Shown: one piece after another, positions 5,860-63,306 of the stretch
Position numbering within the stretch: the stretch's first letter is position 1
Layout: each line of letters begins with the position of its first letter
DNA from: an uncultured Verrucomicrobiota bacterium
Lineage (GTDB): Bacteria > Verrucomicrobiota > Verrucomicrobiia > Palsa-1439 > CAYGDP01
DNA length: 64,000 nucleotides
Reading direction: 5' to 3'
NCBI GenBank assembly: GCA_964348665.1
Contig: CAYGDP010000001.1
Location: 66,767-130,766 of the forward strand
Notes under the pieces: model-generated
What the model was told of the DNA's origin: nothing
The model's database searches: none
Seen by the model: the letters and a program-made list of their open reading frames with translations, nothing else
Made by a program: the position numbers and the translations under genes

Positions 5860-7167
5860 TCACCGCTCGACCGTGAAGGCGATATCCGTTCCCGGCAAAC
5901 ACACGCCACCTTTTTCCGCTCCACCGTCGTCTTTGCCAACCATGCTCGGATCATCCTCATCGCTGATGCTATAGGTCACAAAACCTCGTGCCAATTTTCT
6001 GTAGCGAATCGGCTGGCCATCGAACGGATCCGTCGGAACTGCCGTTAGAAAACGCGGGACAAGTTCATCTAGTTTTTCGGGCAGCTTGCCATTCGCAAGT
6101 CGATACCGCTCGACGGCGATCCCAGCCTGCGCGGCGCGGGCTGTCGCGGATGCTCGCGCATCGCGCAGAGCCCAAGCGATTGTCATCTCGGCCGCCTTGC
6201 GCCACACATTAACCGCTGGAAGTGATTTCTTTAGCTTCGCTTCCGCCTTCAAAATCTCCTGCAAACTTTTGGGCAACGGCAGTTTACTGGCGGCGATGCA
6301 CTCTTCTATGAAAGTCAGAAAGATGATGTAATGCTCGTTCGAGTATTCGGGCATTGGACTGGAGGTTTTATCATGCGCCGAAATCGCTACCCACATCCCC
6401 TTCGCATACTCTCTTGGCTTGGAGATGATTTCGCAGCGATCGCTCACCAGTATTCGAATGACAGCCTCACGGTCGTCTGCAACCGCGACGACGTTAGCAA
6501 GTCTTTTTAGCTCCTCTTCGGAAACCTGCGTGCGATTCAAAAGCCGCTCAACACTGGAAATCATAATCCAGACACAAGCATTGTGGACGAGGCTCGGGAT
6601 CACTCCCGGCTCGTTGGCTAACGAGCGACTGACTGCCGCCGATGTCTGCACCGATTCCACCGCTGTGGAAGTTAGGCCTTGCTCGGCGAGCACGATGGTT
6701 TCAAGGCTAAGCAGTCTTGCGCAAGCGCGCACAGGCGGAAAGGGAGTGGGAATACCATTTACCATCACCCACGGGTAACGGCACTCGCTCTTTGTCGCCG
6801 CCTGACGCAGCAACGTGAGCGTCTGCCGGTGCGCGGTCAAGTAAGTGAAACACGCCTGCATCATTTCCGGAGGCAACCGCTCCGTGCGCGGCGGTAGTTT
6901 AACCCATCCGTCCACCGGAATGCGTTCCCGCAGTTTTTCGTCTCTCGGCGGAAAACTCGAAAACGCCGCCTTATACAGATCCGCGGCGTTATTTTCGGGT
7001 TTCACCTGCGGATACCACTGCTCCAATTCCGCCATCGTCACGGGATAACCCTCTTTCCGAATCGCATCCAGCTTGGATTGGATTTGCTCGTCAAGCGACT
7101 GGCTGCGGACGGCGCAAGCCGTAACCATCCACAAACACGCTGCGCCTATGAGCCGAACCTGCTGCAT
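5860..7167 (-). CDS. secreted hypothetical protein (signal peptide; C-terminal pseudopilin-like motif)
   Basis: N-terminal signal peptide MQQVRLIGAACLWMVTACAV. The C-terminus VPTDPFDGQPIRYRK...GGVCLPGTDIAF resembles the GspG-type pseudopilin C-terminal motif. Confidence 0.45.
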   Translation of the reverse strand: MQQVRLIGAACLWMVTACAVRSQSLDEQIQSKLDAIRKEGYPVTMAELEQWYPQVKPENNAADLYKAAFSSFPPRDEKLRERIPVDGWVKLPPRTERLPPEMMQACFTYLTAHRQTLTLLRQAATKSECRYPWVMVNGIPTPFPPVRACARLLSLETIVLAEQGLTSTAVESVQTSAAVSRSLANEPGVIPSLVHNACVWIMISSVERLLNRTQVSEEELKRLANVVAVADDREAVIRILVSDRCEIISKPREYAKGMWVAISAHDKTSSPMPEYSNEHYIIFLTFIEECIAASKLPLPKSLQEILKAEAKLKKSLPAVNVWRKAAEMTIAWALRDARASATARAAQAGIAVERYRLANGKLPEKLDELVPRFLTAVPTDPFDGQPIRYRKLARGFVTYSISDEDDPSMVGKDDGGAEKGGVCLPGTDIAFTVER

Positions 7168-7296
7168 GGCTACAGATTACTCCGTTTTTCTGCACGTGCC
7201 AGCGTAAATTCTGGACAAGTATGACCGCTACCACAGACGACGCTTACATCCGGATTTGGTGAGACTCTAACGTTCGCTTGCGATTTCGGGGCGTGC

Positions 7297-7512
7297 GTGT
7301 TAGCTTCGCGTAGAATGAGCAAGAACACAGCGCAATTGATTGTGGCATTTGAGAAGCTGCCGATGGTGGAGAAGCAAATCTTTGTAAAAGAGGTTTTTCG
7401 CCGGCTGCCTCCGATTGATTCGGGTGCGTTGAGCGAGGAGGAGATCGCGGCAGCGGGCGATCAACTCGCTGCGCTGATCGAACAGGAAGAGCATGATTCC
7501 CAAGCGCGGTGA
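7297..7512 (+). CDS. putative antitoxin of a degraded PemK/MazF-type TA pair
   Basis: 71-aa ORF whose 3' end overlaps by 20 nt the start of a PemK-like toxin fragment. Acidic C-terminus. Confidence 0.35.
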   Translation: MLASRRMSKNTAQLIVAFEKLPMVEKQIFVKEVFRRLPPIDSGALSEEEIAAAGDQLAALIEQEEHDSQAR

Positions 7513-7612
7513 GATCTGGCTTTTCGACTGCGGAATGGTCGAGAAAATTCGGCCTGTGCTGATTCTCACCAGAATCATTACCGATGAGTCCTTTCTCCGC
7601 ACATTTGGGTGA
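7493..7612 (+). pseudogene. truncated PemK/MazF-family toxin (39 codons)
   Basis: MIPKRGEIWLFDCGMVEKIRPVLILT matches the PemK/MazF N-terminus (RGEIWL...RPVLIVT) but terminates after 39 codons, against about 110 aa for an intact toxin. Confidence 0.45.
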
Positions 7613-7640
7613 AATTCAGGACAGACATTTTGCCGTTTAA

Positions 7641-7702
7641 TGTAGGCCGACTCTGCGAGTCGGCGCATCATTATTATCGCCGCTTCGCAGAAGCGGCCTA
7701 CA
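7641..7702. repeat. 62-bp nested palindromic element (two 8-bp-stem hairpins inside an 8-bp terminal inverted repeat)
   Basis: TGTAGGCC-GACTCtgcGAGTC-GGC...GCC-GCTTCgcaGAAGC-GGCCTACA. The outer TGTAGGCC/GGCCTACA arms are perfectly complementary. The two inner hairpins have 8-bp stems and 3-nt loops. Confidence 0.6.
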
Positions 7703-8080
7703 ATGTTGCAGTACCGACGGCATGACTATCATCGCTAATGGTTCAGAATTCTCAGCGGTAATCATAGACTACACCACGGCACGCTCGGCGCGGTTTTGCC
7801 CGGAGCGGCGGCGTTTGTTTTGTTGAGGATTTTTTTGCGGGAGCGCAAGTTTTTGGGTGTGGCTTCGACATGTTCACCCGCACCGACGCATACGATTGCG
7901 CGCTCGATGAACTTTCGAATGGGCGCCTTGAGAGAGATATCTTCGTTCCTCTGATTTTCCCAGACGATCATTCCTTCCTAAACTCCCTCGTCCGACAGGA
8001 ATCGCTCGTCGTCGGCGAGATTATTCATTTTCCAGCCCGTTGTTTATTTCCAATCTCCCCCGTGCTAATGTCATCCCCCG

Positions 8081-11442: not shown

Positions 11443-11804
11443 GGGCTTGCCCATCGTCAGTCAATTGAAGGATATGGCGGACACGCGATAAAGCGATCAC
11501 CTGATTCCTGGACGAAGCAGATTTGCCAGACTTTCCCAAACAAAGCTGGCCGAAACGACTTCAATTGAACAGGTGGATGCCGATCCCCAAATTTCACTTC
11601 CGCCCTCATCATACAACCCGGTCTCACAGGACTCATGTCGGCAGGGGAAAACTTCTTGTATCTTCTATGCCGGCCGCAGCACCGCCCTTTTTAGCAACAC
11701 CACACCTTGCAAGGTGTGGGGTTGAGTTGCCGAATAGTTTTGAAAAAAATGGATCGGTCCGCCGGGTTATTCGCGAACTCGTATCAAATCTCCGATTGGT
11801 CGGA

Positions 11805-12722
11805 TCACTCCTTCAAATACTCCGGCCAATCGTTGCAACCTTGCGGCAGGACTTTTGTGGCCTCCGCCTTCGGGTTGGCCAGGGTGAAAACGATGGCCAG
11901 CGTGAATTTTCCTCGCGGCGCATTCTCACCGGTGTATTGACCGTGCCCCCAGTACTGGCCGCGCGCAACGAGATCGAACCTCGTGAGTTTACCAGCCTTT
12001 GTCTCGACATAGCCGAATAAATCCGCGTCGTATCCGCGGTCGCCTTTGTTCGTCACGAGCGTCATTTGACTTTCCACTCGCAACGCTCCCCGATCCGGCG
12101 CGACTTTTGATTTCGACGCGCGCACTTCGTTCGACTTCCAAAATGGCGGTTCTCCGCGCGTGTTGTCGACTAAATGATACCGGCCGATTCTTCGGGCGAG
12201 ACTTTCCGGGAACTCGCCGCGCGCCAGTCGCGTGATTTCCGGCTGGGTAATCCAGAGATGGTCGCGTCCAGTGGATTCACGAAACATTTTGCCAAAACGC
12301 TCATCCCATTGGTCTCGATACGGCGGCCAGTCAGCCTGCGTGATTTTCGAGAAAACATCCACCACGACCGCGCCCGGCGGTAGGGTGCCGACAAATCGTC
12401 GGTCTTTCTCGCGTTTGAGGGTTTCCACTTGTGATGGTGACCGATAGGAAGCGAGCGATTGCTTGAGCAATCGTTTGACCTTGTCGGGATCGCGATTGTT
12501 CCAGCCTTCCACCATCTTGCCGTCGGGCGAAAAAATATAGAACCCCTGATGCGCGTTGCCCTTCTTCACGTCCGCCCGTTGAAACACCACTTTCCGATAA
12601 AATTCGCTCTCGTCATCTTTCAGCCATCCGTGATGCGATGCATTGGCGACAACGGGAACGTATTTGGTTTGAAGAAGCGCGATGATTTCGTCGTCGGCAA
12701 ACGTGGACGCACGGTCCAGCAC
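11805..12722 (-). CDS. hypothetical protein, in frame with the upstream 86-aa signal-peptide ORF across a single TGA
   Basis: GTG start only 9 nt downstream of an in-frame TGA that terminates the 12732..12992 ORF. No recognisable family. Confidence 0.4.
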   Translation of the reverse strand: MLDRASTFADDEIIALLQTKYVPVVANASHHGWLKDDESEFYRKVVFQRADVKKGNAHQGFYIFSPDGKMVEGWNNRDPDKVKRLLKQSLASYRSPSQVETLKREKDRRFVGTLPPGAVVVDVFSKITQADWPPYRDQWDERFGKMFRESTGRDHLWITQPEITRLARGEFPESLARRIGRYHLVDNTRGEPPFWKSNEVRASKSKVAPDRGALRVESQMTLVTNKGDRGYDADLFGYVETKAGKLTRFDLVARGQYWGHGQYTGENAPRGKFTLAIVFTLANPKAEATKVLPQGCNDWPEYLKE

Positions 12723-12731
12723 GCCGTTGTT

Positions 12732-12992
12732 TCAGGTGCATCCGAGAGGGTTTCCGTTCATGCTCCACATGAACAACGGTTTGCCTTCTTTCGCCGACCG
12801 GTCGCGCGCCGCCAACAAATCCGTCATCCAGGGAATCGTCTGCCATTTCTCGACTACTGGCGGGCGCACCGAATCAAAAAGTCTTTGAAATTCCGCCGGT
12901 GAAATTTCCCCGGCGCTCGCGCAGACCGAAAACATGGCGCACGTAAGGACGGCTTTGATCTCCCGTTTCATCGTCATGAACCTACCATACAC
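12732..12992 (-). CDS. signal-peptide-bearing N-terminal ORF ending ...GNPLGCT-TGA (possible selenoprotein N-terminus or pseudogene fragment)
   Basis: Signal peptide MKREIKAVLTCAMFSVCASA. Ends with Cys-Thr then TGA, in the same frame as the downstream 305-aa ORF. Confidence 0.35.
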   Translation of the reverse strand: MYGRFMTMKREIKAVLTCAMFSVCASAGEISPAEFQRLFDSVRPPVVEKWQTIPWMTDLLAARDRSAKEGKPLFMWSMNGNPLGCT

Positions 12993-21714: not shown

Positions 21715-23241
21715 TTAGGAGGCGGCGCCGTTGGCGGAAAACGCGGTTAAGGCATCAGAAATTAGAGCGGCGACCCTTTCAGGATGCCAGTCAGGATAGA
21801 AGGCGCGAATCTTTCCTTCGAGGTCAGCGGGGGAGGTGCTGGCCAAAATCATTTGACGCACAGGCGCAAGGCTTCCGCGGAAGGCTCGCGCCAGCTCTGC
21901 CTTACCAGCGCGAGCTATTTCATCGTTCGCCTTCAAAGCTGGCGGTAAAGCTGCGCTCAAAGGCATCATTCCGGCGAACGGAATTTGTGGGACCGGAGCC
22001 TTCCTCTGAAGCGGGAACCCGACACGCTCACTCAAGGTTGGCAGAGCTTCATCGGTAGGCTCGATTCCCGCCGCTGAAATTTTTGCCAATAAATCCCCGG
22101 TCGCCGCTGCCTGTTTGGCAGACTCCGCACCCCAAACAGCCCGGGGCGCACGCCCGATACCCCCATTGATTTTTACCAGTTGATCGAAGAGCTGGTCTTT
22201 CAAAGTCTCGCCAAGCATCTTCCCATCAAACTGGCGAATATCCTCTCGCACGTTCTCCTGTCCAGTCGCGACGCCACTACCAAGTCCGGTACTTTGCGCC
22301 TCACTGGAAAGTGTTTGGCCAACGATCAACTTGGATTTCTCCCTATTACAGATCGAGTGGAATTTCTCGAACGCCTCACCGCTTGATGCGGCCAATGCCT
22401 GCATGATCTCGATTTCGGTTTCGTTCGTTACAACCAAGCCACCGATCCTAGTGGACAAAGCAAACGCACGCTCCAACGTCGTGCGGCTCGCATCATCGGC
22501 CGCGTCATATTTCCCCACCATGAACGGTGCGCCGTACCTTTCCAGAAACCGACCCCACCAATCGCGATCCATCGCCGACAACAGCCACCAAAACAAAATG
22601 GATCGCATCGGTCCACCCCAATTATCCGCCGTAGTGAGCAAATGCCCGCGATGGATGATGTACCGATTGGGATCCGGCTCGTGTTTCGTCGCCAGAATAC
22701 GCCCCTCGGCATCCGTATCACGAATCATCATCACGCCGGATGTGTAATCGAGAAGATCGTAAGGCACTGGCACAAGCTCGCCGATCTCATACTTCACGCC
22801 CTTCATCGTGCTGGGACGAAACACCTTCTCCAAAAGCGCCGATGGCCACAACGTCGAATCCAATAAATGAGAACATGCCTTTATCCAGCCCGACGAATTG
22901 CCCACCAAATTCGTCACCAAACTGCCCGCCTTCACGTCATCATCGTTCTCCTTGTCATGCGGCACGATTGCCATTGGATCACCCAACACCGCAAGCTTAC
23001 GCTTGGCAAATTCCCCCTGGGTGTGGGCATCACTCAAAATTACGTCTCGATACAAAGCGAACAACTGCTGCGTATCGCCCGACTCCGCAGCCCGCAAAAT
23101 TCCGTGCAACCGATCCGCCGTAATCGTCGGCGCCACCGCGCTCAGTTGGTAGCGCTGATTAAAAGTTGTCACCCGCGTCGTCGGCACCTGTGCCGCCGCG
23201 ATCCGCTTCACCGATTCATTCACTTCATTATCTTCAGACAT
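21715..23241 (-). CDS. phage portal protein (Mu gp29-like, DUF935)
   Basis: 508 aa. Sits immediately downstream of the terminase genes. Size and overall character match Mu gp29. Confidence 0.7.
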   Translation of the reverse strand: MSEDNEVNESVKRIAAAQVPTTRVTTFNQRYQLSAVAPTITADRLHGILRAAESGDTQQLFALYRDVILSDAHTQGEFAKRKLAVLGDPMAIVPHDKENDDDVKAGSLVTNLVGNSSGWIKACSHLLDSTLWPSALLEKVFRPSTMKGVKYEIGELVPVPYDLLDYTSGVMMIRDTDAEGRILATKHEPDPNRYIIHRGHLLTTADNWGGPMRSILFWWLLSAMDRDWWGRFLERYGAPFMVGKYDAADDASRTTLERAFALSTRIGGLVVTNETEIEIMQALAASSGEAFEKFHSICNREKSKLIVGQTLSSEAQSTGLGSGVATGQENVREDIRQFDGKMLGETLKDQLFDQLVKINGGIGRAPRAVWGAESAKQAAATGDLLAKISAAGIEPTDEALPTLSERVGFPLQRKAPVPQIPFAGMMPLSAALPPALKANDEIARAGKAELARAFRGSLAPVRQMILASTSPADLEGKIRAFYPDWHPERVAALISDALTAFSANGAAS

Positions 23242-23944
23242 TCAACACCTCCGATGATTCTCGATTTGCCAAAGGATTTTTTACCGACCGGCCCGCCATC
23301 TCTCCGCCGTAGCCCCCCACACGGGCAGCCCGAGCTGACACAGGGCCGCCACCACGCCGTAACGCATGGATACTCAACTTTATTGCCTCAAAACAATCCG
23401 CGTGATTCCCCATCTCATCCACGTCCGCCTCAAACCCACCCTCCACACGCTTCACGCTCCGCAGATCATCCCGCAGCCAAGCCGCTTGCGGCAACAACAC
23501 ACGTCCATCATCCATCAACCCAACGAACTGATTCCCCAAAAACGTCTTCGTCTTCATCTCCTCACCCATGTACTTGACATTCTCGCTGGCGATCACCAGC
23601 TCCACCACAACCTTACCCGCCAATTTACTCCGTAGCGCAGCCGCAAAAAACCGCTCGCTCGTCGCCTCAAGACAAACTCTCCGCACGCGCTTGTTGTCGG
23701 GCAAATCCAGCGCGTACCGCAGAACCTCCTCATAGACCTCGGGCTTGTTTGTCTTGAACCGTACCACGCACCGCACTATGTAATCCCCCCCCACCAACTC
23801 CGTCACCGCGATCGCCGACGGGTTCGACTTTTCCTTCGCCGTCGTCCCGATGTCCCCGCCGATACCGATCAAGCCATTCGTCAATAGACTTTTCCAGCCA
23901 ATCGGCCAAACCTCAGCAGGCGTTATGCGACGATCCGGTTTCAT
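23234..23944 (-). CDS. terminase large subunit, C-terminal nuclease domain (separate ORF)
   Basis: LIGIGGDIGTTAKEKSNPSAIAV matches the TerL nuclease motif (hhGhDxGxxxDxSAhhV). ATGA-coupled to the upstream methyltransferase gene. Confidence 0.6.
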   Translation of the reverse strand: MKPDRRITPAEVWPIGWKSLLTNGLIGIGGDIGTTAKEKSNPSAIAVTELVGGDYIVRCVVRFKTNKPEVYEEVLRYALDLPDNKRVRRVCLEATSERFFAAALRSKLAGKVVVELVIASENVKYMGEEMKTKTFLGNQFVGLMDDGRVLLPQAAWLRDDLRSVKRVEGGFEADVDEMGNHADCFEAIKLSIHALRRGGGPVSARAARVGGYGGEMAGRSVKNPLANRESSEVLNV

Positions 23945-25110
23945 GGATTCAACTCGCGGTACAAAGTGACAAAGGCTTTTGCGGCGACGGCCGGCACGAC
24001 TCCGTTGCCAGCCAATCGCAGTTCATCCACTCGAAAGACACGCCCATGAGCCACGCCACAAAGCGCGGGTTCAAGCGTCGGGTCGTGCGTAAGGACTTTG
24101 CCCCAAGCGTCGAGATCGTTTGGCCGTGGGGGAAATTCAGGCAAGCAACATTCAAAGGTTGTTTGTGGCGACGATGTTGTGATGGGCCTGCATTGTTGCT
24201 CGCATCTTGAACTGTCTCGGTCGGCCAAGTCACTGCATCTCTCGCCAGATACGCATTCCCCGCCTTGCTGCATGGCTTTTGACCGCTGCCCCTCATCGTT
24301 ACATCGTGGGCTTGTGGCGTTGTCCACATCTTTGCCATCCGATCCAGCCCAGCTTCCATCACTCTTTTCCCACCCCGACTCCGAAAGTTTTCCGCTGCCG
24401 GTGACGGCCACATTTTCGCCGCCGTTTGTAGTCCGTCGCCCGCCTTCTCGCTGATCCCTGATCGGTTGTTGTTGCCGTTCACCGATGGCGTCGGCCACTG
24501 AATTGCTTTCCCCAGCAAAGTTGGATTCGATGGGCCATGATGATTGTGCAATCGGCCCCCCGACCCATCCGCCTTGATTGGTGTCGGCCAATTGTCCGAG
24601 GATGAAGACTCGTTTTCGCACATGGCTTGCGCCGACTTCAGCCGCGCTGAATATGCCCCACGCGCGCCGATAACCATCCGCTTCCAAGTCCGCCAGCACT
24701 TTACGGAGGCCGTTGTTGATGTGACCCTCGACATTCTCGAAGAAAACCCAGCGCGGTCGCATCGTTTGATAGCCACGACGGACGGCTGGCCACAAGTTTC
24801 TCTCATCACGGAAGCCGCGCCGCTTTCCCGCGCTGCTGAACGGCTGACACGGATAGCTCGCAATGAAGATGTCCACGATGCCGCGAAAATCTTCTCCTGG
24901 GAAGGTCTTACAATCCGACCAAATAGGCGCTGCGTCCAGGAATCCCTGCTCCATTTTCGCAACCATGTTCGCAACTGCATACGCTTCGATCTCACAGCCA
25001 GCGATAAGCCGCATAGTTGGCAAGACTCGTTTGAGTCCGAGATACATACCGCCGTAGCCGAAGCACCATTCAACGCAATTAAGTTGTTGGGCAGAATCCA
25101 CATGGCTCAC
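23941..25110 (-). CDS. DNA (cytosine-5)-methyltransferase
   Basis: Motif I CFGYGGMYLG (FxGxGG), motif IV SYPCQPFSSAGKRRG, motif VI FENV, motif VIII HVRKRVF. Long Gly/Ser/Asp-rich variable region. C-terminal LAGNGVVPAV (motif X). Confidence 0.8.
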   Translation of the reverse strand: MSHVDSAQQLNCVEWCFGYGGMYLGLKRVLPTMRLIAGCEIEAYAVANMVAKMEQGFLDAAPIWSDCKTFPGEDFRGIVDIFIASYPCQPFSSAGKRRGFRDERNLWPAVRRGYQTMRPRWVFFENVEGHINNGLRKVLADLEADGYRRAWGIFSAAEVGASHVRKRVFILGQLADTNQGGWVGGPIAQSSWPIESNFAGESNSVADAIGERQQQPIRDQREGGRRTTNGGENVAVTGSGKLSESGWEKSDGSWAGSDGKDVDNATSPRCNDEGQRSKAMQQGGECVSGERCSDLADRDSSRCEQQCRPITTSSPQTTFECCLPEFPPRPNDLDAWGKVLTHDPTLEPALCGVAHGRVFRVDELRLAGNGVVPAVAAKAFVTLYRELNP

Positions 25111-25271
25111 GCCGCCTCCTGTTTTTTCAACCCATAGAACCGCTCGACCAAACGCCGGGCATAATCGGACAGCGGCACAAACCCGCGCTCGCTCTCGATC
25201 ACTTGGCCTTGCTTGGCCAACTCGTGAAGCCGATCCCGAATTTGATCGCGGTTCATGCTGTTAATTTTCAT
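25107..25271 (-). CDS. small hypothetical protein (54 aa) in the methyltransferase insertion cassette
   Basis: MKINSMNRDQIRDRLHELAKQGQVIESERGFVPLSDYARRLVERFYGLKKQEAA. ATGA-coupled on both sides. Confidence 0.3.
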   Translation of the reverse strand: MKINSMNRDQIRDRLHELAKQGQVIESERGFVPLSDYARRLVERFYGLKKQEAA

Positions 25272-26420: not shown

Positions 26421-26497
26421 TGGTAGCGGGAGTCGGATTTGAACCGACGATCTTTAGGTTATGGGCCTAACGAGATTCCAGGCTTCTCCATCCCGCA
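26421..26497 (-). tRNA. tRNA with CAU anticodon (Met/Ile2-like), phage-encoded
   Basis: Cloverleaf: acceptor 6 bp plus a U1xU72 mismatch, D-stem GAGA/UCUC with GG in the loop, anticodon stem UUAGG/CCUAA, loop CCCAUAA (C33 instead of U33), T-stem GUCGG/CCGAC with loop UUCAAAU, discriminator A and encoded CCA. Confidence 0.6.
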
Positions 26498-33541: not shown

Positions 33542-33802
33542 GTGCAAACAATGAACCGGAACCATGAGAGTTGCAAGCCCCAAATTTCCCAGCGCGCCGC
33601 CGCGGAGCTACTCGGTACAACCGAGAGTCATTTTTGCCGCGTGTTGCGCGGGGAACGTCGCAGCCAGCGGCTTAGCCGCGCACTCAATCAATTACGTCGC
33701 AGCTACCGGATCGTTTATTACACCCGTCAACTCAAGGAGAAAACACCATCAAGGAGAATCCATGAAAAAACCAGGAGCAAGGAGTCAGTCCGAAACCAGT
33801 AA
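33542..33802 (+). CDS. Cro/Ner-like small HTH DNA-binding protein
   Basis: ISQRAAAELLGTTESHFCRVLRGER HTH. Position divergent from the repressor. The 3' end is uncertain because of an overlapping 59-codon ORF at 33762..33941 that has its own ribosome-binding site. Confidence 0.4.
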   Translation: MQTMNRNHESCKPQISQRAAAELLGTTESHFCRVLRGERRSQRLSRALNQLRRSYRIVYYTRQLKEKTPSRRIHEKTRSKESVRNQ

Positions 33803-34340
33803 ACCCGCCGCCAACATCATTCGCTTTCCCTCGCGCTATCGCGGCAGTTTCAGCACGAGTCAGGCACGCGAGCGCCGCCGTGCACAGGCCGATTTCTTAC
33901 GCGCCAGCGCCAACCTTCACGAGGAAGCTGCGCGCGCATGATCAACGCCCCGATCAATGGGGATTCCGGGGTTAAATCCACGCGAGCACCGCGCGCACGG
34001 CGAGCAACGCTCCTCGATTCGCGCCGCCAATCCCGGCACGCTCCCCACTCGCCATGCGGGTCAACCCAAAACTTTTTCTGCGCCCCATGACACCCACACC
34101 AACGCCCCCATCTCATTTCCGTCGCGGCCCAGCCCTGTTGGTGCAGGATGTATCCATCAACGATTGCACCTGTGGCAACTGTGTTTTGCATCGGTGTGTT
34201 TTGCTTGTGGATTACGCGCCGATGGTAATCGAGGTGTTAGGCAACCGCCAACGGCCACCCACGCTCGGGCGCATCCTGCATCTTTTCATTCACCGGCCAA
34301 ACCTATTTCGACAACTCGTAGTTACCAAGGAGACAAAACC

Positions 34341-34586
34341 ATGAGTTACTTAACCGAGATTTTAGATCGCCGCCTGCTACCGATCAGCACGGCAAATCGC
34401 AATCTGAAAACCGCCCTGTATCGGCTGCGAAAGCTTCGTGGTATTCGCGCGACGATGCGGCGCGGCGCATCATTTGGCGTCGCCTGTAGCCTGAATCAGA
34501 CGAATCGCCGCAACGCGCTGATCTGGATCAGGGCTTACAACAAATTCGGCATGGCTGGCCTCGTCGGAAAACATGGAGGAAAATGA
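34341..34586 (+). CDS. small HTH protein (IS3-OrfA/HTH_28-like)
   Basis: ACSLNQTNRRNALIWIRAYNKFGMAGLV resembles the transposase-type HTH. Ribosome-binding site AAGGAGA. ATGA-coupled downstream. Confidence 0.4.
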   Translation: MSYLTEILDRRLLPISTANRNLKTALYRLRKLRGIRATMRRGASFGVACSLNQTNRRNALIWIRAYNKFGMAGLVGKHGGK

Positions 34587-35395
34587 ACGCCAACGGAAAA
34601 ATTCAACACATCAACCCAGAACTTCTTGTTCCGCATCCTTTGACTGAACTCGTACCGATGACGGCGGAGGATGAATCCCAAAATGTCGCGTTAATCGAGA
34701 GCATTCGGGAGCGCGGAATTGACCAGGCAATCTTGGCGGACGCCAGCTATAAAATCCTCGATGGCCGCCATCGGCATCGCGCGGCGAAGACTCTAAAACT
34801 CGCCACTGTGCCGGTTGTAATCCGAGAGGAAACCGAGGCCGCGAGCATCATCTTGGATTCCCTTCTTGCCCGCCGTCACTTTACCAAAAGCGCGCTGGCC
34901 TACATCGCGTTACCGCTCTACGACAAAGCCGCCGCTGAGGGGCGACAGCGTAGGACGGGAGCTAAGCCGAGTGGCTCGGCTTTCGCTATGAAAGCGAGTG
35001 ATTTTTCAACCCGTTTAGGCATCTCAAAAGACACCTTTGAACAAGCTCGCGATGTTCGAGAATTGTTCGCCAAACGCCCTGATTTGAAGGCTGAATTTGA
35101 GCCCAAAATTTTTAGCGGGGATATGAGCCTCTGGAATGTTCGTAGCGCAGCGGGCGGTCGCGACAAAACCAAAGGCGTCGCCCGCAAAGACAGCCAGCGC
35201 ACCTTTGAAGATCTGGTCGGCGATTGGATCGAGCTAGGCGTTCATCGCCTCAAACATTGGGAGAAAATCGGCAGTAAAGCCGATCGGCTCAAACTAACCC
35301 ACAAAGCTGCCGATGCGCTTGTTGGCGCTTTCCCCGACGAATGGTTGCCGGCATTGGAACGCGCGATCCGTGCGCGAAAAGGAGAGACGCGATGA
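34583..35395 (+). CDS. ParB-like nuclease domain protein
   Basis: ILDGRHRHRAA (ParB/sulfiredoxin DGxHR motif). Confidence 0.6.
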   Translation: MNANGKIQHINPELLVPHPLTELVPMTAEDESQNVALIESIRERGIDQAILADASYKILDGRHRHRAAKTLKLATVPVVIREETEAASIILDSLLARRHFTKSALAYIALPLYDKAAAEGRQRRTGAKPSGSAFAMKASDFSTRLGISKDTFEQARDVRELFAKRPDLKAEFEPKIFSGDMSLWNVRSAAGGRDKTKGVARKDSQRTFEDLVGDWIELGVHRLKHWEKIGSKADRLKLTHKAADALVGAFPDEWLPALERAIRARKGETR

Positions 35396-37194
35396 CTGAT
35401 ACACAAACCCGCGAACTGACGCGACGCAATCAAATCGTGTGCGCCGCCATCCCTCTGTTGAATCAGGGCGGCAGCTATGCAGCCGTCGCGCGCAGGCTCG
35501 GCGAGAATAAAGTCTCGCTATATCGGTGGGTATCGGTATTTCGAAAAGGCGGCGATGCGGCGCTTATCCCTCAATCCACCAACAGCGGGCGCAAAGCGGA
35601 CTTCAATCTGACCGACGACGAAGCCGCCGCTCTGCGATATTGGCGGCTGGTGCGCGGCAGCCTGGCCTCGGCGATTCCCGATTTCACGCAGTCGCGCGAG
35701 TGCCGCCCCGAGACGCGCGCGAAAATCCTCGCCATCCAGGACCGTGCCGCGCGCGATCGCCGTATTCCCAACTGGCCGATGTCGCTCCGGCGCGCGGGTC
35801 ATGTAACCGCCGATGATGAAGCCTTGTTCCGCGGCTGCAAACATTTTCAGGAGGTCGAGTTTTGCCAGCGGCGCGGCAACTTCATCGTGGATGAAGCGGG
35901 CAACCAGATCGAACTCGCCCCAAACACGATTTGGGAATCGGACGATATGTCCGTCAACGAACCGTTTTCCTACGTGGATGCCGACACCGGCGAGACCAAA
36001 CTCGGTCGCCAAACTCTTTGGACGCAGGATGTCTATAGCGCCAAATGGATCGGCACGACTCCATTGGGCCGCGCCAAGGACGCCTATCGCGTCGAGGATA
36101 TCGCTGACCACATTTTCAACTGCGTGCTTCAATTCGGGCTGCCGACCATCTGGCGTATCGAGCGCGGCGTGTGGGACAACAACTGGGTGGACGGCTTTGA
36201 GCTGCCCGATGGCTCCCGTTGGGGCGGCCTCGATGCGCTGATGCGCATCCAAAAGGTTTTCAAATCACGCGGCAAAGGCGGCATCGAATCTAACTTCAAT
36301 CTCCTCCAAACCATCAACGCCCACAAATCCACCAGCATTGGTCGCAGCCGGAGCGAGTTCGAGGCCGCCACAAAACTTTTCCTGTCCGCCCAAAAAGGAA
36401 ACACGGAGGCCGCCGCGAAATTCTGGAACATTGCCGAGTGTGCCGATGGCCTGCTCGAAACCGCTCGCGCGGCGGATGCCCGCGCCAAACAACGCCGTGC
36501 CTTCGGACGCGATGTCGTAGTTCCCAACGATCTTTACGCCGCGGCAACCAAACGGGAAATTCCAGCCGATCAATTGTGGCGATTCTGCCCCATCAAGCGC
36601 TCGGCCACTGTGCGCGGAGGTCACGTCGAGGTCAGCGTCAATCATTATCCCCTGCCGTTCCGATTTCGCGTCAACGGCGTTGAGGATCTGCACCTAGAAC
36701 AAGGCTATGCGGTGTTGATTGCGTTCCATCCCGGGCGCGCCCACGAGGGCTGCCACGTTTTCAGCGCCGAGACCGGCAGCCGGAACCGATTCGGTCTCAA
36801 ATTTAGCGAGAAGATTTTGCTCGCCCCGATGGCCGAGGATGCCCCGCAGATTTCCATGAGCCGTGATGAGCAGCAATTTCTGGCCCGGCGCAAAGCCAAC
36901 GCGGCGGCGCGCACCGAGTTCCGCGCCATCGTAGCGGCAGGTACGCGCGGCCGACGCGAATCCATCGCGCGCGATTCCTACGGCAACACGCAGCGGATCG
37001 AGACCCAACAGATTTCGGGGGCGAGCGGGCCGCAAACTGACCGTTTGCAAAATGCGCCCACAAGTGCCGCCCCCGTTATTTCCGCGCCACGCCGCCGCGC
37101 GACGCCAGAATACGACGAGGCGGAGACGCGCAATCGCATCAAGGAAAACGAAGACGCCCTGCGCGAGCAAGGTGTCGTGATCGAAGAATCGTAA
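35392..37194 (+). CDS. Mu-type DDE transposase (MuA-like)
   Basis: 600 aa. N-terminal HTH region, central DDE core (WESDDMS...), Mu-transposase-like C-terminal domain. Follows the repressor and Cro/Ner-like gene, as in Mu. Confidence 0.7.
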   Translation: MTDTQTRELTRRNQIVCAAIPLLNQGGSYAAVARRLGENKVSLYRWVSVFRKGGDAALIPQSTNSGRKADFNLTDDEAAALRYWRLVRGSLASAIPDFTQSRECRPETRAKILAIQDRAARDRRIPNWPMSLRRAGHVTADDEALFRGCKHFQEVEFCQRRGNFIVDEAGNQIELAPNTIWESDDMSVNEPFSYVDADTGETKLGRQTLWTQDVYSAKWIGTTPLGRAKDAYRVEDIADHIFNCVLQFGLPTIWRIERGVWDNNWVDGFELPDGSRWGGLDALMRIQKVFKSRGKGGIESNFNLLQTINAHKSTSIGRSRSEFEAATKLFLSAQKGNTEAAAKFWNIAECADGLLETARAADARAKQRRAFGRDVVVPNDLYAAATKREIPADQLWRFCPIKRSATVRGGHVEVSVNHYPLPFRFRVNGVEDLHLEQGYAVLIAFHPGRAHEGCHVFSAETGSRNRFGLKFSEKILLAPMAEDAPQISMSRDEQQFLARRKANAAARTEFRAIVAAGTRGRRESIARDSYGNTQRIETQQISGASGPQTDRLQNAPTSAAPVISAPRRRATPEYDEAETRNRIKENEDALREQGVVIEES

Positions 37195-37213
37195 ACACAA
37201 AATCAAGGAGACC

Positions 37214-38419
37214 ATGAGCAAGACAACTGAAGCAGTGAAGATGGGCTGGTGGATGCCGACCAAAATGGCTGGCGTTCGCGCTGTACATCATTACGCGACG
37301 GCAGATCGCGGAGCGGCCTGCGGGAAATGGATTTACCACGGCGATGGCGGTGATCTAGTGGCAGACCAACCCGATAAAGCCTGCCCTAATTGCCTAACAG
37401 CATTGAGTCGCGATAAAAAACCGAACCTCCCAATGCCGCCCACCGAAGGCGAGTATGGCGATCTCGATACCGAGATCCGGGAGTTGACACAATTCATCTA
37501 CGCTTATCAAACGACCGAAGACCTCAGCGACAACGCGTTGGTGAAAAAGTTCCCCGGACTCGGCAGCACGAAGACGTGGACAAAGTTCCTGTCTGGAAAC
37601 ATCGTCGAACTCAACGTCCCTAAATGGATCGTCGAGTATCGCCAAGTTCGCGAGCAGATTGTCGCGCTCCAAACGCGCAGCAAAGACAACGAACCGATTT
37701 ACGACGATCTCAGCGGCTTCATGCGGTTACGCGGCGCCTTCACCGAGGCGCTCCGCGAAGACGGTAACAATCGCCTGATCATCGTTCAAGGACCATCGGG
37801 CAGCGGCAAGACGACGGCGGTGAAGTTGTTGGCGCAGAAATTTGGGCGGCGGATTATTTTCTGCGAGGCCGACGAGACTTGGAAAGAATCGCTGCGCGCC
37901 ATGATGGGCGGCATCCTCAACGCCGTCGGCATCGAGCAGACGCCGCTACAACTCCGCGACTGTGAACGCAAAGTCATCGAGCGATTGTCGGCGCCGCGCG
38001 TTTGTCTGGTGATTGACGAAGCCCATCACCTCGGCCCGCGCACGCTGAACCTCGTCAAGACGATCATCAACCAAACGCCAGGCGAAATCATTTTGCTGGC
38101 GATGGACACGCTTCAGGCGCGTCTCGAATCGAGCGCGTATTTCGAGGCAATGCAGTTGGTCCACAACCGTCTGCTCGAACGCATCCGCCTCGACCGCCTC
38201 GAAGCCGACGACGTGGAGAAAATTCTCAAGCGCCGCCTCACGTGGGAAAATGGAGATTTACACAAAGCCGCCACCGCGTTGCGCGATCAAGCCGTGCGGC
38301 GCGGCCATCTGGCCTTCGTCAAACTCGTCGTGCGCCGCGCCGCACGCCTGGCCGATGGCGACCCGATGACACTCGAAGTTTTTGTGAAGGCCATGAGCCA
38401 GACTATTGATAAACGCTAA
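37214..38419 (+). CDS. MuB-like AAA+ transposition ATPase with N-terminal zinc ribbon
   Basis: Walker A GPSGSGKTT, Walker B LVIDEAHHL. N-terminal C-x5-C...CPNC zinc ribbon. Directly downstream of the transposase. Confidence 0.7.
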   Translation: MSKTTEAVKMGWWMPTKMAGVRAVHHYATADRGAACGKWIYHGDGGDLVADQPDKACPNCLTALSRDKKPNLPMPPTEGEYGDLDTEIRELTQFIYAYQTTEDLSDNALVKKFPGLGSTKTWTKFLSGNIVELNVPKWIVEYRQVREQIVALQTRSKDNEPIYDDLSGFMRLRGAFTEALREDGNNRLIIVQGPSGSGKTTAVKLLAQKFGRRIIFCEADETWKESLRAMMGGILNAVGIEQTPLQLRDCERKVIERLSAPRVCLVIDEAHHLGPRTLNLVKTIINQTPGEIILLAMDTLQARLESSAYFEAMQLVHNRLLERIRLDRLEADDVEKILKRRLTWENGDLHKAATALRDQAVRRGHLAFVKLVVRRAARLADGDPMTLEVFVKAMSQTIDKR

Positions 38420-43955: not shown

Positions 43956-44203
43956 GCGAATCAAAAACAGGCTGGTGGAACCCGACGCCTTTTCGGGACA
44001 ACCCACGATTCCATTATGTAACTGATGATGGCCGAACGCTTTGCGGCAAATGGGCATACATTGGCATGGGCGATGTCGAGGAGGGACGCGACGGTCACTC
44101 CGAAAATTGTGTCGCCTGCAAAAAGAAAAAGCTGGCGCTGAATGCCCGCGCCAAAAACCCCCGCCACGTGGAACTACCGGTCAAGGAATTAACCAATGGC
44201 TGA
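43952..44203 (+). CDS. zinc-ribbon protein paralogous to the MuB N-terminal domain
   Basis: TGWWNPTPF...DGRTLCGKWAYIG...ENCVACKKK versus MuB MGWWMPTKM...RGAACGKWIYHGD...KACPNC. Confidence 0.4.
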   Translation: MSESKTGWWNPTPFRDNPRFHYVTDDGRTLCGKWAYIGMGDVEEGRDGHSENCVACKKKKLALNARAKNPRHVELPVKELTNG

Positions 44204-45767
44204 ATTTCTTTTCGGACCTGTGCCGCACGAAGAGGCGATCAAGTTCATCGCCGATAAACCCGTTGTCTCGCGCGAGGTTTTCAACAAGCTTCTACCCGAG
44301 CTGAAGGCGCGGGCGTTTACCATCAGCGGCATCGAGGGCGCGAACGCGATGCAGAGTATCCGCGACAAGATCGCCGAGCTGCCCGCAGGCGGCGATTGGG
44401 ACACGATCAAGCAACAAATCGCCGATGACCTCGCCAATGAAGGTCTATTCGATAATCCTGATGCCGACGAGGAATCGCGTGCGGCCAGCGCCGAGGCCGC
44501 CGAGCGCCGTGCCGAAATTCTTTTGCGCACCCACGGATTCCAAGCCTACAGCGCCGCGCGATTCAACGTGATGAATCGGCAGAAAGATGCCCTGCCGTTT
44601 TGGAAATATCAAACCGTTGGTGATGAACATGTGCGCGATGAACACGCCGCGCTCGATGGCGTCATTCTTCCCGCCGATTCGCCCTTTTGGAACGATCATT
44701 ATCCGCCATGGGATTGGGGCTGCCGATGTTTGGTCGTGCCGCTCGATGCCGAGGAAGTCGCCGAGATTCGCGAGGCGGAAAAGGATTTGGATGGCGACAA
44801 GCGATCGCTACTCGAAGGCGAGTTACAGCGCCAGCTAGAAGTCAACGGGCGAATCGCGCGCGGTCCTACGCAAGTCGTTGACGTGCGCAGTCCGCGCGAC
44901 AAAGGCGTGGAAGCGCCATTTGTTTGGCAGCCAGGCAATTTGCGCGTGCCGATCCAAAAGCTTCGCGGCCAATGGGATGCCCCTGTTTTTGATAGCTTCG
45001 AGCAGTGGGCTAAACGTCAGATCGTAAATGAACGCGATCAAACCGTTTGGAATTGGCTGAATCAAAAGCAACGCCCGCCGCTGGCAACGCGCGATTCATT
45101 GCGCAGCGAGGATGTGAAGCGTAAACATCGCGGGGCAATCTCCCAGGGAGTATCGCGCTCGGACAAGATCACATTGGAAGATGGTACTGTCGCTGTCCGA
45201 AAACCAATCGAAGGTTTGGGGTACGAAGATTTTTTGGAGGGGCCTCTATTTCATAAAGATTCCAGCAGAAACGGGGCTGCCTTTCAAATCGCCGCCGATG
45301 ATATTTCGCGCGCGCTGGGCTGGGAGGTTGTGGCGCCAGCATCCATCAATAAGGATGGATCTGAATTACGAACGGCTTTTACCGAAGGTGTGGCACTCCA
45401 TTCGTCACCGCGATCTGAAATCGATCGTCAACAATGGGAGCGGGTGGCGTTCATTGATTATGTAATCGGACAGCAGGATGGCCATAGCGGAAATTACTTG
45501 GTCACTGCGGATGGCAAGTTGGTTGGGTTCGATCTGAATATCGCCGGTGGTGAGCGATTCCGCAGTACGGCGTTGGAAGAGATCAGTCGTGAGACAGACG
45601 AGGGTGGCGTCGCTAAATTTAGCAGGAAAACCGTGAATGAGGTCGAGCGCAAGCTTGACAAGATCGCATTTCGAGAGGAAGTTTCTACGGAGCTTCAGGA
45701 CAAACTTTTGGGGCGGATCAAGGAGTTTTTAGATTCCGATGGTGAGATAAACTGGGAGTTCAAATGA
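44196..45767 (+). CDS. Mu F-like minor head protein (gp30) fused to a C-terminal PI3K/PI4K-like kinase motif
   Basis: Phage_Mu_F motif KYQTVGDEHVRDEHAALDGVI. The C-terminal VIGQQDGHSGNYLVTADGKLVGFDLN matches the lipid-kinase catalytic loop GDRHxxN and the DFG-like activation segment. Confidence 0.65.
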   Translation: MAEFLFGPVPHEEAIKFIADKPVVSREVFNKLLPELKARAFTISGIEGANAMQSIRDKIAELPAGGDWDTIKQQIADDLANEGLFDNPDADEESRAASAEAAERRAEILLRTHGFQAYSAARFNVMNRQKDALPFWKYQTVGDEHVRDEHAALDGVILPADSPFWNDHYPPWDWGCRCLVVPLDAEEVAEIREAEKDLDGDKRSLLEGELQRQLEVNGRIARGPTQVVDVRSPRDKGVEAPFVWQPGNLRVPIQKLRGQWDAPVFDSFEQWAKRQIVNERDQTVWNWLNQKQRPPLATRDSLRSEDVKRKHRGAISQGVSRSDKITLEDGTVAVRKPIEGLGYEDFLEGPLFHKDSSRNGAAFQIAADDISRALGWEVVAPASINKDGSELRTAFTEGVALHSSPRSEIDRQQWERVAFIDYVIGQQDGHSGNYLVTADGKLVGFDLNIAGGERFRSTALEEISRETDEGGVAKFSRKTVNEVERKLDKIAFREEVSTELQDKLLGRIKEFLDSDGEINWEFK

Positions 45768-48095: not shown

Positions 48096-48123
48096 CTCAC
48101 GAATCTGAAAGGAAATCACCACC

Positions 48124-49035
48124 ATGCTTGTCACCAAAGAAAACGTCAAAGAGATCTTCAAAGGGTATCGGGTCATCTTCGAGGAAGCCTTCCAGGGAAT
48201 CCGCGAGTTGACATGGCGGCGCATCGCCATGGAGACCCAATCTTCTGGCGATAGTGAAGACTACGCCTTTCTCTCCGCCATACCCGGTGTGCGGGAATTG
48301 ATTGGTGAGATTCAAGTCAAGAACTTGAGCACGCAGAAATTTACCATCACCAATAAGGAGTGGGAAGTCACGATCGGCCTGCCAGTCAAGCTCGTCGAGC
48401 GCGATACCTACGGCTTGTTGAAGCCGCAGATTCAAATGATGGCGCAGGTCACAGCGCAACATCCCGATGACTTGGTTTCAGATCTACTGATCAATGGCTT
48501 CACGACCAAGTGCTATACGGGCAAAAATTTCTTCGATACCGACCACGAGCCAGTCAAAGGCGGCACGAAGTTCACCAATAAGGACACGAAGAAATTGTCC
48601 GCCGGCAACTGGGAGGCCGCGCGCGCCGCGCTGCGTGGTATCAAGAACAGCGAAGGTCGCCCGATGAATCTTGGTCGGGACTTGGCTTTGTGTGTGAGTC
48701 CTGAGAACGAAGGCTTGGCGAAGCGCATTCTTGAGGCCGAGTTTCAAAATGGCGGCGACTCGAATGTCAACAAAGGTACAGGAAAGGTGCTTGTACTGCC
48801 GAAACTTGGCGGGGCAACCCACAAGGAAAAATGGTTTGTGATCGAGGCTGGCTACCCTGTCCGCGCGTTGATCGTCCAGATCGAGCGGCAGCCGACAGCG
48901 CTCGCTGTTACCGACCCGGAAGACAGCTACGTCGTGCTGAAAAAACAATTCATCAACCAAGGCTACTACCGCGGTAATGCAGGCTACGGATTGCCTGAGT
49001 TCGCCTGGGGTTCAGACGGCACGACCGGGCCGTAA
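48124..49035 (+). CDS. major capsid protein (Mu gpT-like)
   Basis: MLVTKENVKEIF...RRIAMETQSSGDSEDYAFLSAIP aligns with Mu T MIVTPA...NKIAMVVNSSTRSNTYGWLGKFP. Confidence 0.7.
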   Translation: MLVTKENVKEIFKGYRVIFEEAFQGIRELTWRRIAMETQSSGDSEDYAFLSAIPGVRELIGEIQVKNLSTQKFTITNKEWEVTIGLPVKLVERDTYGLLKPQIQMMAQVTAQHPDDLVSDLLINGFTTKCYTGKNFFDTDHEPVKGGTKFTNKDTKKLSAGNWEAARAALRGIKNSEGRPMNLGRDLALCVSPENEGLAKRILEAEFQNGGDSNVNKGTGKVLVLPKLGGATHKEKWFVIEAGYPVRALIVQIERQPTALAVTDPEDSYVVLKKQFINQGYYRGNAGYGLPEFAWGSDGTTGP

Positions 49036-61930: not shown

Positions 61931-63306
61931 TTTTTCTTTTTTTGCTTCGCGGCGCCGCCTCGGCCCTGCCACATGGGTTTCGCCAGTTCGCCATTCCATT
62001 TTTCCCAAAGCGTCTGGAGAGACTTGGCGCGGTCCGATTCTTGCGCGACCAGATTGGTTTGTTCGCCGATGTCGCGGGCGAGATGGTAGAGTTGCCAGTC
62101 TTCGGTCGCACTCGGCTTGACCAGCTTCCAACCCCCCTGCCGAATCGCGCCCTGTGCGCCAAAACGCCAGTAGAGCGCCTCGTGCGGCGCGGCTTTGTTC
62201 CCGCCGGTGACGAACGGCAACAGGTTCACGCCGTCGAGTTTCCAATCCGGCTTGATCTCGCCACCTGCGGCGGCAACGGCGGTCGGATAAATGTCGAGCG
62301 CGATGACCGGGCGGTCGTCGGTGACGCCGGCGGGGACGTGGCCTTTCCATTGCATCATCCAAACGACGCGGACGCCGCCGTCATAGACGCTTCCTTTTTT
62401 GGCGCGAAGCGCGCCGTTGGTGCTGGTGTCGCGCGCGTTCGAGCCGCCGTTGTCGCTGATGAAGAAGACGAGCGTGTTTTCTTCCAACTTCGTTTCGCGC
62501 AATTTGCCGAGCACGGCGCCGACCCCGTCATCGAGCGCGGCGATCATGGCGCAATATGTTCGGCGGGAAGGCGCGAGACCCTCCCGGACGCGCCCATAAT
62601 ACTTTTCCGGCGCTTGCGCGGGCATATGAACGGCGTTGAACGGCAAATACAGCAGGAATGGTTTGGTCTTGTTCGATTCGATGAACGCGCATGCCTCACT
62701 CGCAAGGGTCTCGGTAAGATAGCCGTCGGATTTTTCGAGTGATTTGTCGCCGCGAACGAGCGCATTGTTGCCCGCGCCCACCGCGAAATAATCGTGCGCG
62801 CCGCCCAAAAAACCGAAGAATTGATCGAACCCGCGCTTCTGCGGTAGATAATCTTCCCGATTTCCCAGGTGCGATTTTCCGATCCAGCCGGTCGTGTAGC
62901 CGAGCGCTTTCATGCGGTCGCCAATGGTTTTCTCCGTCAACGGGAGGCCGAAGTTTTGCGGCGCGAGCGGGCCGGGATTGAACTCGTGGCCGAACCGCTG
63001 CTGATAACGTCCCGTCATCAACCCCGCCCGCGTCGGACTGCAAACGGGGCACGAGACGTAACCGCTGGTGAACCGCAAGCCGTTCCCGGCAATGGAATCG
63101 ATGTGCGGCGTCGGCACATCTTTATTGCCTTGCACACCGACATCGCTGTAGCCGAGGTCGTCGGCGACGATGACCACCACGTTAGGACGCTCCGCGCCGA
63201 ACACGGAAACTCCAAATCCCGAATTCCAAACTCCAAGGAAACCCCAGGCTCCAAATACGAAAGAGAAAAGGAAACGGAAGGAATGTTTTGACCGGCCATC
63301 CCTCAT
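61927..63306 (-). CDS. sulfatase (formylglycine-dependent arylsulfatase family)
   Basis: SCPVCSPTRAGLMTGRY (C-x-P-x-R sulfatase signature), VVIVADDLGYSD. Signal peptide. Start taken at MRDGRSKHSF. Confidence 0.75.
   Translation of the reverse strand: MRDGRSKHSFRFLFSFVFGAWGFLGVWNSGFGVSVFGAERPNVVVIVADDLGYSDVGVQGNKDVPTPHIDSIAGNGLRFTSGYVSCPVCSPTRAGLMTGRYQQRFGHEFNPGPLAPQNFGLPLTEKTIGDRMKALGYTTGWIGKSHLGNREDYLPQKRGFDQFFGFLGGAHDYFAVGAGNNALVRGDKSLEKSDGYLTETLASEACAFIESNKTKPFLLYLPFNAVHMPAQAPEKYYGRVREGLAPSRRTYCAMIAALDDGVGAVLGKLRETKLEENTLVFFISDNGGSNARDTSTNGALRAKKGSVYDGGVRVVWMMQWKGHVPAGVTDDRPVIALDIYPTAVAAAGGEIKPDWKLDGVNLLPFVTGGNKAAPHEALYWRFGAQGAIRQGGWKLVKPSATEDWQLYHLARDIGEQTNLVAQESDRAKSLQTLWEKWNGELAKPMWQGRGGAAKQKKKK

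Follow-up and report, generated by a model that had tools for sequence, protein, structure and literature searches.

The stretch of DNA analysed here (the window: 64,000 nucleotides from an uncultured Verrucomicrobiota bacterium, contig CAYGDP010000001.1, positions 66,767 to 130,766) carries on its minus strand a gene in which an in-frame TGA very probably encodes selenocysteine (Sec). Comparison with related loci leaves us in little doubt that this is a genuine selenoprotein gene, and almost as confident of the complete account, in which Sec decoding yields an exported protein with a thioredoxin fold. An open reading frame (ORF) with a signal peptide and an ORF of 305 amino acids (aa) share one frame with a TGA between them, a layout that an earlier reading of the sequence alone (the original prediction) had described and that we could confirm. 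The upstream ORF ends in ...KPLFMWSMNGNPLGCT, followed by the TGA at 12734-12732 (minus strand), the codons AAC AAC GGC and the GTG at 12722 that starts the 305-aa ORF (11805-12722, minus strand). A mechanical call of the upstream ORF starts at GTG 12992 and gives 86 aa, and public gene calls start at ATG 12971 (79 aa) or ATG 12977 (81 aa). The real start is likely ATG 12971, or else ATG 12977, with GTG 12992 as an alternative. Read-through of the TGA gives one long protein, as had been proposed; with ATG 12971 as start it would be a precursor of 388 aa that contains the motif Cys78-Thr79-Sec80. The gene and its parts are listed here.

11805..12971, minus strand: putative complete selenoprotein gene, 388 codons plus stop, with Sec as codon 80 (probable start)
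12912..12971, minus strand: predicted Sec-type (secretory) signal peptide MKREIKAVLTCAMFSVCASA, read from the sequence
12438..12848, minus strand: predicted thioredoxin-fold domain (residues ~42-178) that extends across the Sec codon
12738..12740, minus strand: TGC codon of Cys78, which probably pairs with Sec in the C-x-U motif
12732..12734, minus strand: UGA codon for Sec, residue 80
12695..12726, minus strand: selenocysteine insertion sequence (SECIS) element, in which an internal loop separates the lower helix (12722-12726 paired to 12695-12699) from the upper hairpin
12704..12718, minus strand: upper hairpin of the SECIS, UGGAC-CGUGC-GUCCA, with apical loop 12709-12713 and 99.2% of cells paired
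11808..12401, minus strand: predicted beta-rich C-terminal domain, residues ~191-388, without a close solved relative
12138..12179, minus strand: top-conserved motif of the C-terminal domain, YHLVDNTRGEPPFW (alignment A1)

Taken alone, a single sequence of this kind shows nothing beyond chance, in-frame TGA joins being common. It also looks exactly like a nonsense pseudogene, in which TGA arose by mutation from a codon for Cys or Trp and the gene died, and gene callers treat it that way. Public assemblies carry the gene as two pieces of 79 aa and 305 aa. Identical copies are present on five independent contigs, which excludes a sequencing error and also argues against a dead gene. One genome per species of GTDB r232 was scanned with the C-terminal-domain motif YHLVDNTRGEPPFW as pattern, and 385 loci encoding a relative were found. 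Eighty of them were retained for comparison, which gives 81 sequences together with the window gene. The 80 loci have a protein identity of 40-59% and hence are not copies of one contaminant. They belong to Planctomycetota (Pirellulaceae, Planctomycetaceae, Isosphaeraceae, Gemmatales and Phycisphaerales) and Verrucomicrobiota (Limisphaerales and Verrucomicrobiales). The stop at the site is TGA in 80/80 loci and TAA or TAG in none (81/81 with the window). In each of the 80 the upstream frame is open through this single stop and back to a hydrophobic N-terminus, and the stop sits within W-[AS]-M-[DN]-G-[HN]-P-[LM]-G-C-[TV]-*-N-N-G-[VI]. Coding conservation extends to both sides of the TGA in the 81 sequences, and the residue at position -2 to Sec is Cys in 80 of them (Gly in L005). 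A TGA that never turns into TAA or TAG, with conserved flanks in two phyla and a covarying hairpin behind it, refutes the nonsense pseudogene that the original prediction had offered as its alternative, and we give this option practically no probability.

With the fused protein as query, a database search gave 627 homologues. Of the 120 listed, nearly all were ~295-305 aa long and covered 78% of the query, so that they appear cut at one common point, and a search with the N-terminal piece found only ORFs of ~80 aa that end in ...GCT. Gene callers routinely split the family into two "hypothetical" genes, and the sampled GenBank and IMG records are shortened "hypothetical protein" entries. This form, which public annotation takes everywhere, would suit two real genes, one for a small secreted peptide and one for a cytoplasmic protein of 305 aa that starts at GTG 12722. 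However, two separate genes are not what the homologues show. The two parts are always in frame and merely 9 nucleotides (nt) apart, the start of the supposed second gene varies among homologues (M, V or further downstream), and the full-length homologues with Cys are single proteins. Moreover, the modelled thioredoxin fold straddles the TGA, with strand 1 and the active-site loop encoded upstream and helix 1 onward encoded downstream. It therefore seems extremely improbable that the locus consists of two genes.

The second line of evidence is the RNA structure that follows the UGA. The hairpin UGGAC-CGUGC-GUCCA (12718-12704, minus strand) starts 13 nt past the UGA, as first noted. RNAalifold returned exactly this hairpin on an alignment of the 81 sequences (alignment A3) that extends from 6 nt ahead of the UGA to 59 nt behind it, and the proposed stem of 5 base pairs (bp) proved to be a conserved, covarying SECIS core. 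There is essentially no variation in four of the five pairs. The remaining one (24:36) links the third bases of a Leu and a Ser codon; 61 sequences have C-G here, 11 (window included) G-C and 9 U-A, and none has the pair broken. The covariation score of this pair is 0.143 against 0.049 in shuffles (0/500 reach it), and controls with a slid partner gave at most 0.072. Arg has six codons, but the Arg codon in the loop is CGU in 81/81 sequences, a sign that the RNA itself is under selection. For Asp the codon GAC is used in 80/81 (one sequence has His, CAC), the loop CGUG is invariant or nearly so, and the pattern of the family SECIS reads UGA-N13-U[G/C/U]GAC-CGUG[C/A]-GUC[C/G/A]A.

Published criteria for bacterial SECIS elements are a loop of 3-9 nt with a G within its initial two positions, a stem of 4-16 bp, a distance of 16-37 nt from the UGA and a minimum free energy (MFE) of at most -7.5 (PMC13188914). 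The window element lies within these ranges, as its loop CGUGC has 5 nt with G at position 2, its stem 5 bp and its spacing 18 nt. For the 48 nt from the UGA, the window has an MFE of -16.2 kcal/mol, and 71/81 sequences have one <= -7.5. Similar to the E. coli fdhF-type SECIS and the bSECISearch consensus, the hairpin lies just 3' of the UGA inside the ORF, and the G-U in a small apical loop and the spacing of 16-37 nt agree with the bacterial consensus. In contrast to the fdhF type, the conserved upper stem has just 5 bp, and a conserved bulged U cannot be made out. An extension of the upper stem by pairs 21:39 and 22:38 was rejected, as these positions are mostly unpaired. The Rfam scan of the window gave no match to a SECIS family.

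The third line of evidence comes from natural Cys forms. Full-length homologues that span the site are rare. Cys is aligned to the UGA in P0146 (GHPLGCTCNNGLVDR), P0152, P0262 and P0161, all with GCTC, and the more distant homologue P0060 has Cys at the Sec site too. At DNA level P0146 and P0060 both have TGC here, followed by a broken hairpin or by none. An alignment of homologues had been suggested as a check, and its outcome is that Sec gives way to Cys rather than to Trp, and does so only in genes with a decayed hairpin. One homologue, P0021, appears in the database with Trp at the site. In the underlying DNA a TGA and the intact hairpin are present, and its locus does not yield the database product under table 11; P0021 is a Sec form in which the UGA was read as W by a gene caller using another genetic code. 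The entry is a JGI metagenome gene call (L084 186-1406). Such entries can pose as "Trp homologues" and mislead comparisons of Sec and Cys forms. The surroundings of the Cys-form genes differ: the P0146 gene is flanked by a three-domain multicopper oxidase on one side and a radical SAM/SPASM pair on the other (L085 1900-7322), and the P0060 gene lies near an MsrB-MsrA fusion gene (L086 3549-4613).

The printed W of P0021 could also be taken to mean that the UGA is read, but not as Sec, either through a code that assigns UGA to Trp or Gly or through near-cognate read-through stimulated by the hairpin. A UGA-to-Trp recoding in some Verrucomicrobiota, reported in PMC13462651, would fit this as well. 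However, the W is the gene-calling artefact described above, and within the orthologous clade Sec is naturally replaced by its chemical analogue, Cys. As an ordinary stop, moreover, TGA is used more often in the window than any other and ends most long ORFs, so that the genome is not recoded as a whole and codes 4 and 25 do not apply. In two of the loci a tRNA-Sec with anticodon UCA adjoins the gene, namely 270 nt downstream in L032 (7137-7236) and 330 nt downstream in L041 (4057-4155). Both were called by ARAGORN and scored 66.8 and 68.5 bits against Rfam RF01852 (cut-off 47). A reading of the UGA as another amino acid is therefore very unlikely. L032 and L041 are metagenome-assembled genomes of planctomycetes; no selA, selB or selD lies beside their tRNA-Sec, and the next genes in L032 are, by eye, galactokinase-like, ScpB-like and gamma-glutamyltranspeptidase-like. 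Complete selA/B/C/D sets have been reported from several planctomycetes (PMC4807772). With the TGA in 81/81 sequences, the covarying hairpin and the Cys homologues, the selenoprotein option of the original prediction, a Cys-Thr-Sec motif with a SECIS, is strongly supported.

The encoded protein was analysed for its location and fold. The N-terminus has a basic n-region, a hydrophobic core of 12 residues and an A-S-A motif, and the N-termini of the homologues are equivalent. With Cys in place of Sec the fused protein matched no Pfam-A or NCBIfam 20.0 model at E <= 1, and P0146 likewise matched none of the models of catalogued selenoprotein families. A structure was modelled with AlphaFold2 on the natural Cys homologue P0146 (56-row alignment), with a mean predicted local distance difference test (pLDDT) score of 88.4 and a predicted template modelling (pTM) score of 0.88. 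In this model residues ~40-166 form a beta-alpha thioredoxin fold with the C-T-C loop after strand 1, and a beta-rich domain takes up residues ~194-346. The family profile matches 3ira (E 0.0011), and in that alignment the G-C-T of the family lies within one or two residues of the C-H-W-C of 3ira. Weak matches to Thioredoxin_7 and Thioredox_DsbH were obtained for 6/25 full-length members (best E 9.7e-5); the listed scores of 13.6-17.9 bits did not reach the gathering cut-off of 27 for PF13899 and PF03190, and the window protein matched neither. A CxxC, UxxC or CxxU motif is absent, and C-T-U, with one residue between and a longer loop before helix 1, is present instead. On the strength of the model we propose to classify the N-terminal domain as a thioredoxin fold of the DsbH/Thioredoxin_7/AGR type with C-T-U at the classic active site. 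In the C-terminal domain, the residues H, D, N, T, R, G, E, P and W of the YHLVDNTRGEPPFW motif are invariant in alignment A1 (H-x-x-D-N-T-R-G-E-P-x-x-W).

Beyond the conserved recoded UGA, the SECIS covariation, the Sec/Cys pair and the fold, which the analysis establishes, a mechanism can be proposed. At the UGA (12734-12732) the ribosome would meet the downstream SECIS hairpin, which would recruit SelB with Sec-tRNA(Sec). Sec would be inserted as residue 80 and translation would go on to the 388-residue precursor. The N-terminal signal peptide would then direct transport across the cytoplasmic membrane. There, Cys78-Thr79-Sec80 would be placed where thioredoxins carry CxxC, and a reversible selenenylsulfide between Cys78 and Sec80 could make the protein an extracytoplasmic thiol/selenol oxidoreductase. 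The C-terminal domain with its H-x-x-D-N-T-R-G-E-P-x-x-W loop might hold the substrate or partner. The oxidoreductase role is the most likely function, although we give it only about even chances.

The wider family contains members with other chemistry. An exhaustive profile search found 2785 cluster representatives at E <= 1e-3, of which 288 at <= 1e-30. Among the best 150 matches, ~70 start within a few residues past the Sec position and ~23 span it. The spanning members carry C-T-C, T-T-C, S-T-C, C-T-A, C-T-G, C-V-A or no redox residue. In 4/25 full-length members (P0179, P0182, P0208 and P0261) a Ser/Thr kinase and a membrane segment precede the module, and in another 4/25 (P0257, P0270, P0273 and P0294) a zf-HC2/FecR anti-sigma module does; the site is mostly non-redox in these fusions. 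Judged from sequence, the C-terminal two-domain module of these fusion paralogues follows the membrane segment and would be extracytoplasmic. The fusions imply that the two-domain module also serves as an extracytoplasmic sensor-type domain.

This typical sensor-domain architecture could imply that the protein is a selenoprotein but not an oxidoreductase, with Cys-x-Sec either binding a metal or metalloid or sensing redox state or a ligand, and with the module as a binding or sensing unit. The multicopper oxidase beside the Cys form P0146 points in the same direction, and ~70% of the described predicted Sec-ligand interactions involve metals or metal-derived molecules (PMC13188914). However, the motif lies exactly at the catalytic position of the thioredoxin fold, the Cys at -2 is kept in 80/81 sequences, as expected of a resolving residue, and no metal-handling neighbour is conserved in the 81 loci. 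A ligand or sensor function, the chief rival of the oxidoreductase role, is therefore rather doubtful. A broader scenario is speculative and less likely than not, namely that the family is specific to the Planctomycetes-Verrucomicrobia-Chlamydiae (PVC) group (here Planctomycetota and Verrucomicrobiota), extracytoplasmic and almost obligately Sec-containing, that its two-domain module in a non-redox form also provides the sensor domain of Ser/Thr kinases and FecR-type anti-sigma factors, and that the Sec form belongs to an unknown selenium-dependent periplasmic pathway of redox reactions or sensing.

Several observations speak against Sec decoding and an oxidoreductase function and have to be weighed. 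Firstly, ARAGORN and Rfam found no tRNA-Sec in the 64-kb window, and selA, selB and selD are absent from the window ORFs that were annotated or scanned, so that Sec decoding in the source genome is assumed by analogy with relatives. Secondly, the folding energy of the 71-nt segment of the window is ordinary (z = -0.17), the conserved upper stem is short, and the lower helix, with 80% of its cells paired, does not clearly covary. The variants of the covarying pair track clades, and may represent perhaps two to four independent double changes. Thirdly, confidence in the structure model is lowest at the active-site loop (pLDDT ~55), and many paralogues have no redox residue at the site, meaning that the scaffold does not require redox chemistry. 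Lastly, the gene neighbourhood is not conserved: when all ORFs within ~7-8 kb of the gene were clustered for the 81 loci, no neighbour was common to more than 17/81. As to the sel genes, Pfam scans of 20 further window ORFs yielded prophage genes and no sel gene, and a tblastn search with an approximate E. coli SelD query, a weak test, gave no match in the window or the loci.

The neighbours that recurred, namely sulfatases, DUF1501, PSCyt-type proteins and beta-propellers, belong to families generic to the PVC group, and a pathway could not be inferred. In one verrucomicrobial clade (10 loci) a secreted CxxCH protein similar to prenyltransferases and squalene-hopene cyclases is encoded near the gene. 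Its gene abuts the selenoprotein stop on the same strand in L008, L014, L018, L019, L031, L034, L037 and L071, at about 6885-7820 in most of these eight, and in L058 and L074 a homologue lies ~3.5 kb further downstream.

The prokaryotic selenoprotein inventory of May 2026 comprises 119 families, each with a domain identifier (PMC13188914). None of these families (Table 1 there) fits the window protein in a comparison by Pfam and NCBIfam models, which leaves aside families defined only in CDD or PANTHER. The C-x-U entries of the inventory are rhodanese form 3, a UshA-like protein, ferredoxin-thioredoxin reductase and the PF13192 "Sec.1" family, and their models were unmatched. The last of these (Thioredoxin_3) is likewise described as thioredoxin-like with C-x-U, but the window protein has no PF13192 match at E <= 1. 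The Sec forms of thioredoxin (Trx), DsbA-like, DsbG-like, TlpA-like and Prx-like proteins (PMC13188914) share with the window gene the in-frame UGA with an immediate hairpin. They also have Sec at the redox position of a thioredoxin fold and Cys homologues, and those of the Dsb type are extracytoplasmic, as the window protein is predicted to be. However, the window protein has C-x-U instead of UxxC or CxxU and an extra beta-rich domain of ~200 residues, and it matches no Pfam or NCBIfam model of those families. Sequence matches to Thioredox_DsbH/DUF255 (PF03190) and Thioredoxin_7 (PF13899), which include 3ira, 7tkv, DsbH 2ju5, AGR2/3 and ERp19, are weak, and the window protein differs from them by the lack of CxxC, the longer active-site loop and another C-terminal domain. 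Sec forms far outnumber Cys forms in the window family, whereas the usual pattern is the reverse (PMC13188914).

BSepDB (111 families, homology-based) and deep-Sep make no mention of Planctomycetota or Verrucomicrobiota. By its own statement deep-Sep may miss selenoproteins that lack Cys homologues, which would explain why this family was overlooked. A "hypothetical" selenoprotein candidate of the planctomycete P1 (IMG 2643311185/6; PMC4807772, S9 Table) might belong to the same family. Apparently, we are dealing with an undescribed selenoprotein family that is widespread in Planctomycetota and Verrucomicrobiota. It is probably new as a family, and as a bacterial selenoprotein with a thioredoxin fold it is of a familiar kind and adds no new principle; what is unusual about it is its C-x-U motif, its additional domain and how strongly the Sec form predominates.

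If the assignment is correct, the shortened "hypothetical" entries and the orphan ORFs of ~80 aa should be merged and relabelled, and genomes that carry the gene could be flagged as Sec users. The dominance of Sec (80/80 loci, with few Cys forms in protein searches) would provide a test case for Sec retention. The family would also be a blind spot of methods that search for Cys/Sec pairs, and it may have escaped every selenoproteome survey because its Cys homologues are so rare, given that most search methods rely on such homologues. Its compact and highly conserved SECIS would serve phyla with few characterised selenoproteins and could be used in reporters and gene finding.

In the window itself, the only other adjacent in-frame TGA join of long ORFs is at 33555-34586 (plus strand); it was rejected as a second gene with a translated TGA, since its translation is low-complexity junk. 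A perfect 20-nt palindrome, CCACACCTTGCAAGGTGTGG, lies at 11701-11720, ~85 nt downstream of the selenoprotein stop codon. It was not picked up by the terminator scan, which requires a loop and a T-run, and the scan for promoters and terminators gave no signal above the shuffled background. A Mu-like prophage occupies 21715-49035 and probably extends to ~59 kb, with the following genes.

21715-23241, minus strand: Portal_Mu
23234-24022, minus strand: terminase-like gene
23941-25260, minus strand: C5 DNA methylase
34490-35395, plus strand: ParB_N
35278-37194, plus strand: HTH transposase-like gene
37181-38419, plus strand: MuB-like AAA_22 ATPase
44193-45767, plus strand: Mu F
48109-49035, plus strand: gpT major head protein

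The portal and terminase genes are on the opposite strand and far from the head genes, which may indicate two elements or a rearrangement. The sole tRNA of the window, a tRNA-Met (CAT) at 26421-26497 (minus strand), lies within the prophage region. Between ~17000 and 20400 (minus strand) there are three tandem genes with a DCC1-like thiol-disulfide oxidoreductase domain and then two DUF2071 genes, and this run sits upstream of genes for an aldehyde dehydrogenase, a rhomboid protease and a PfkB/ketohexokinase-like kinase. Lastly, a glycoside hydrolase family 81 protein of 913 aa is encoded at 59639-62380 (minus strand).

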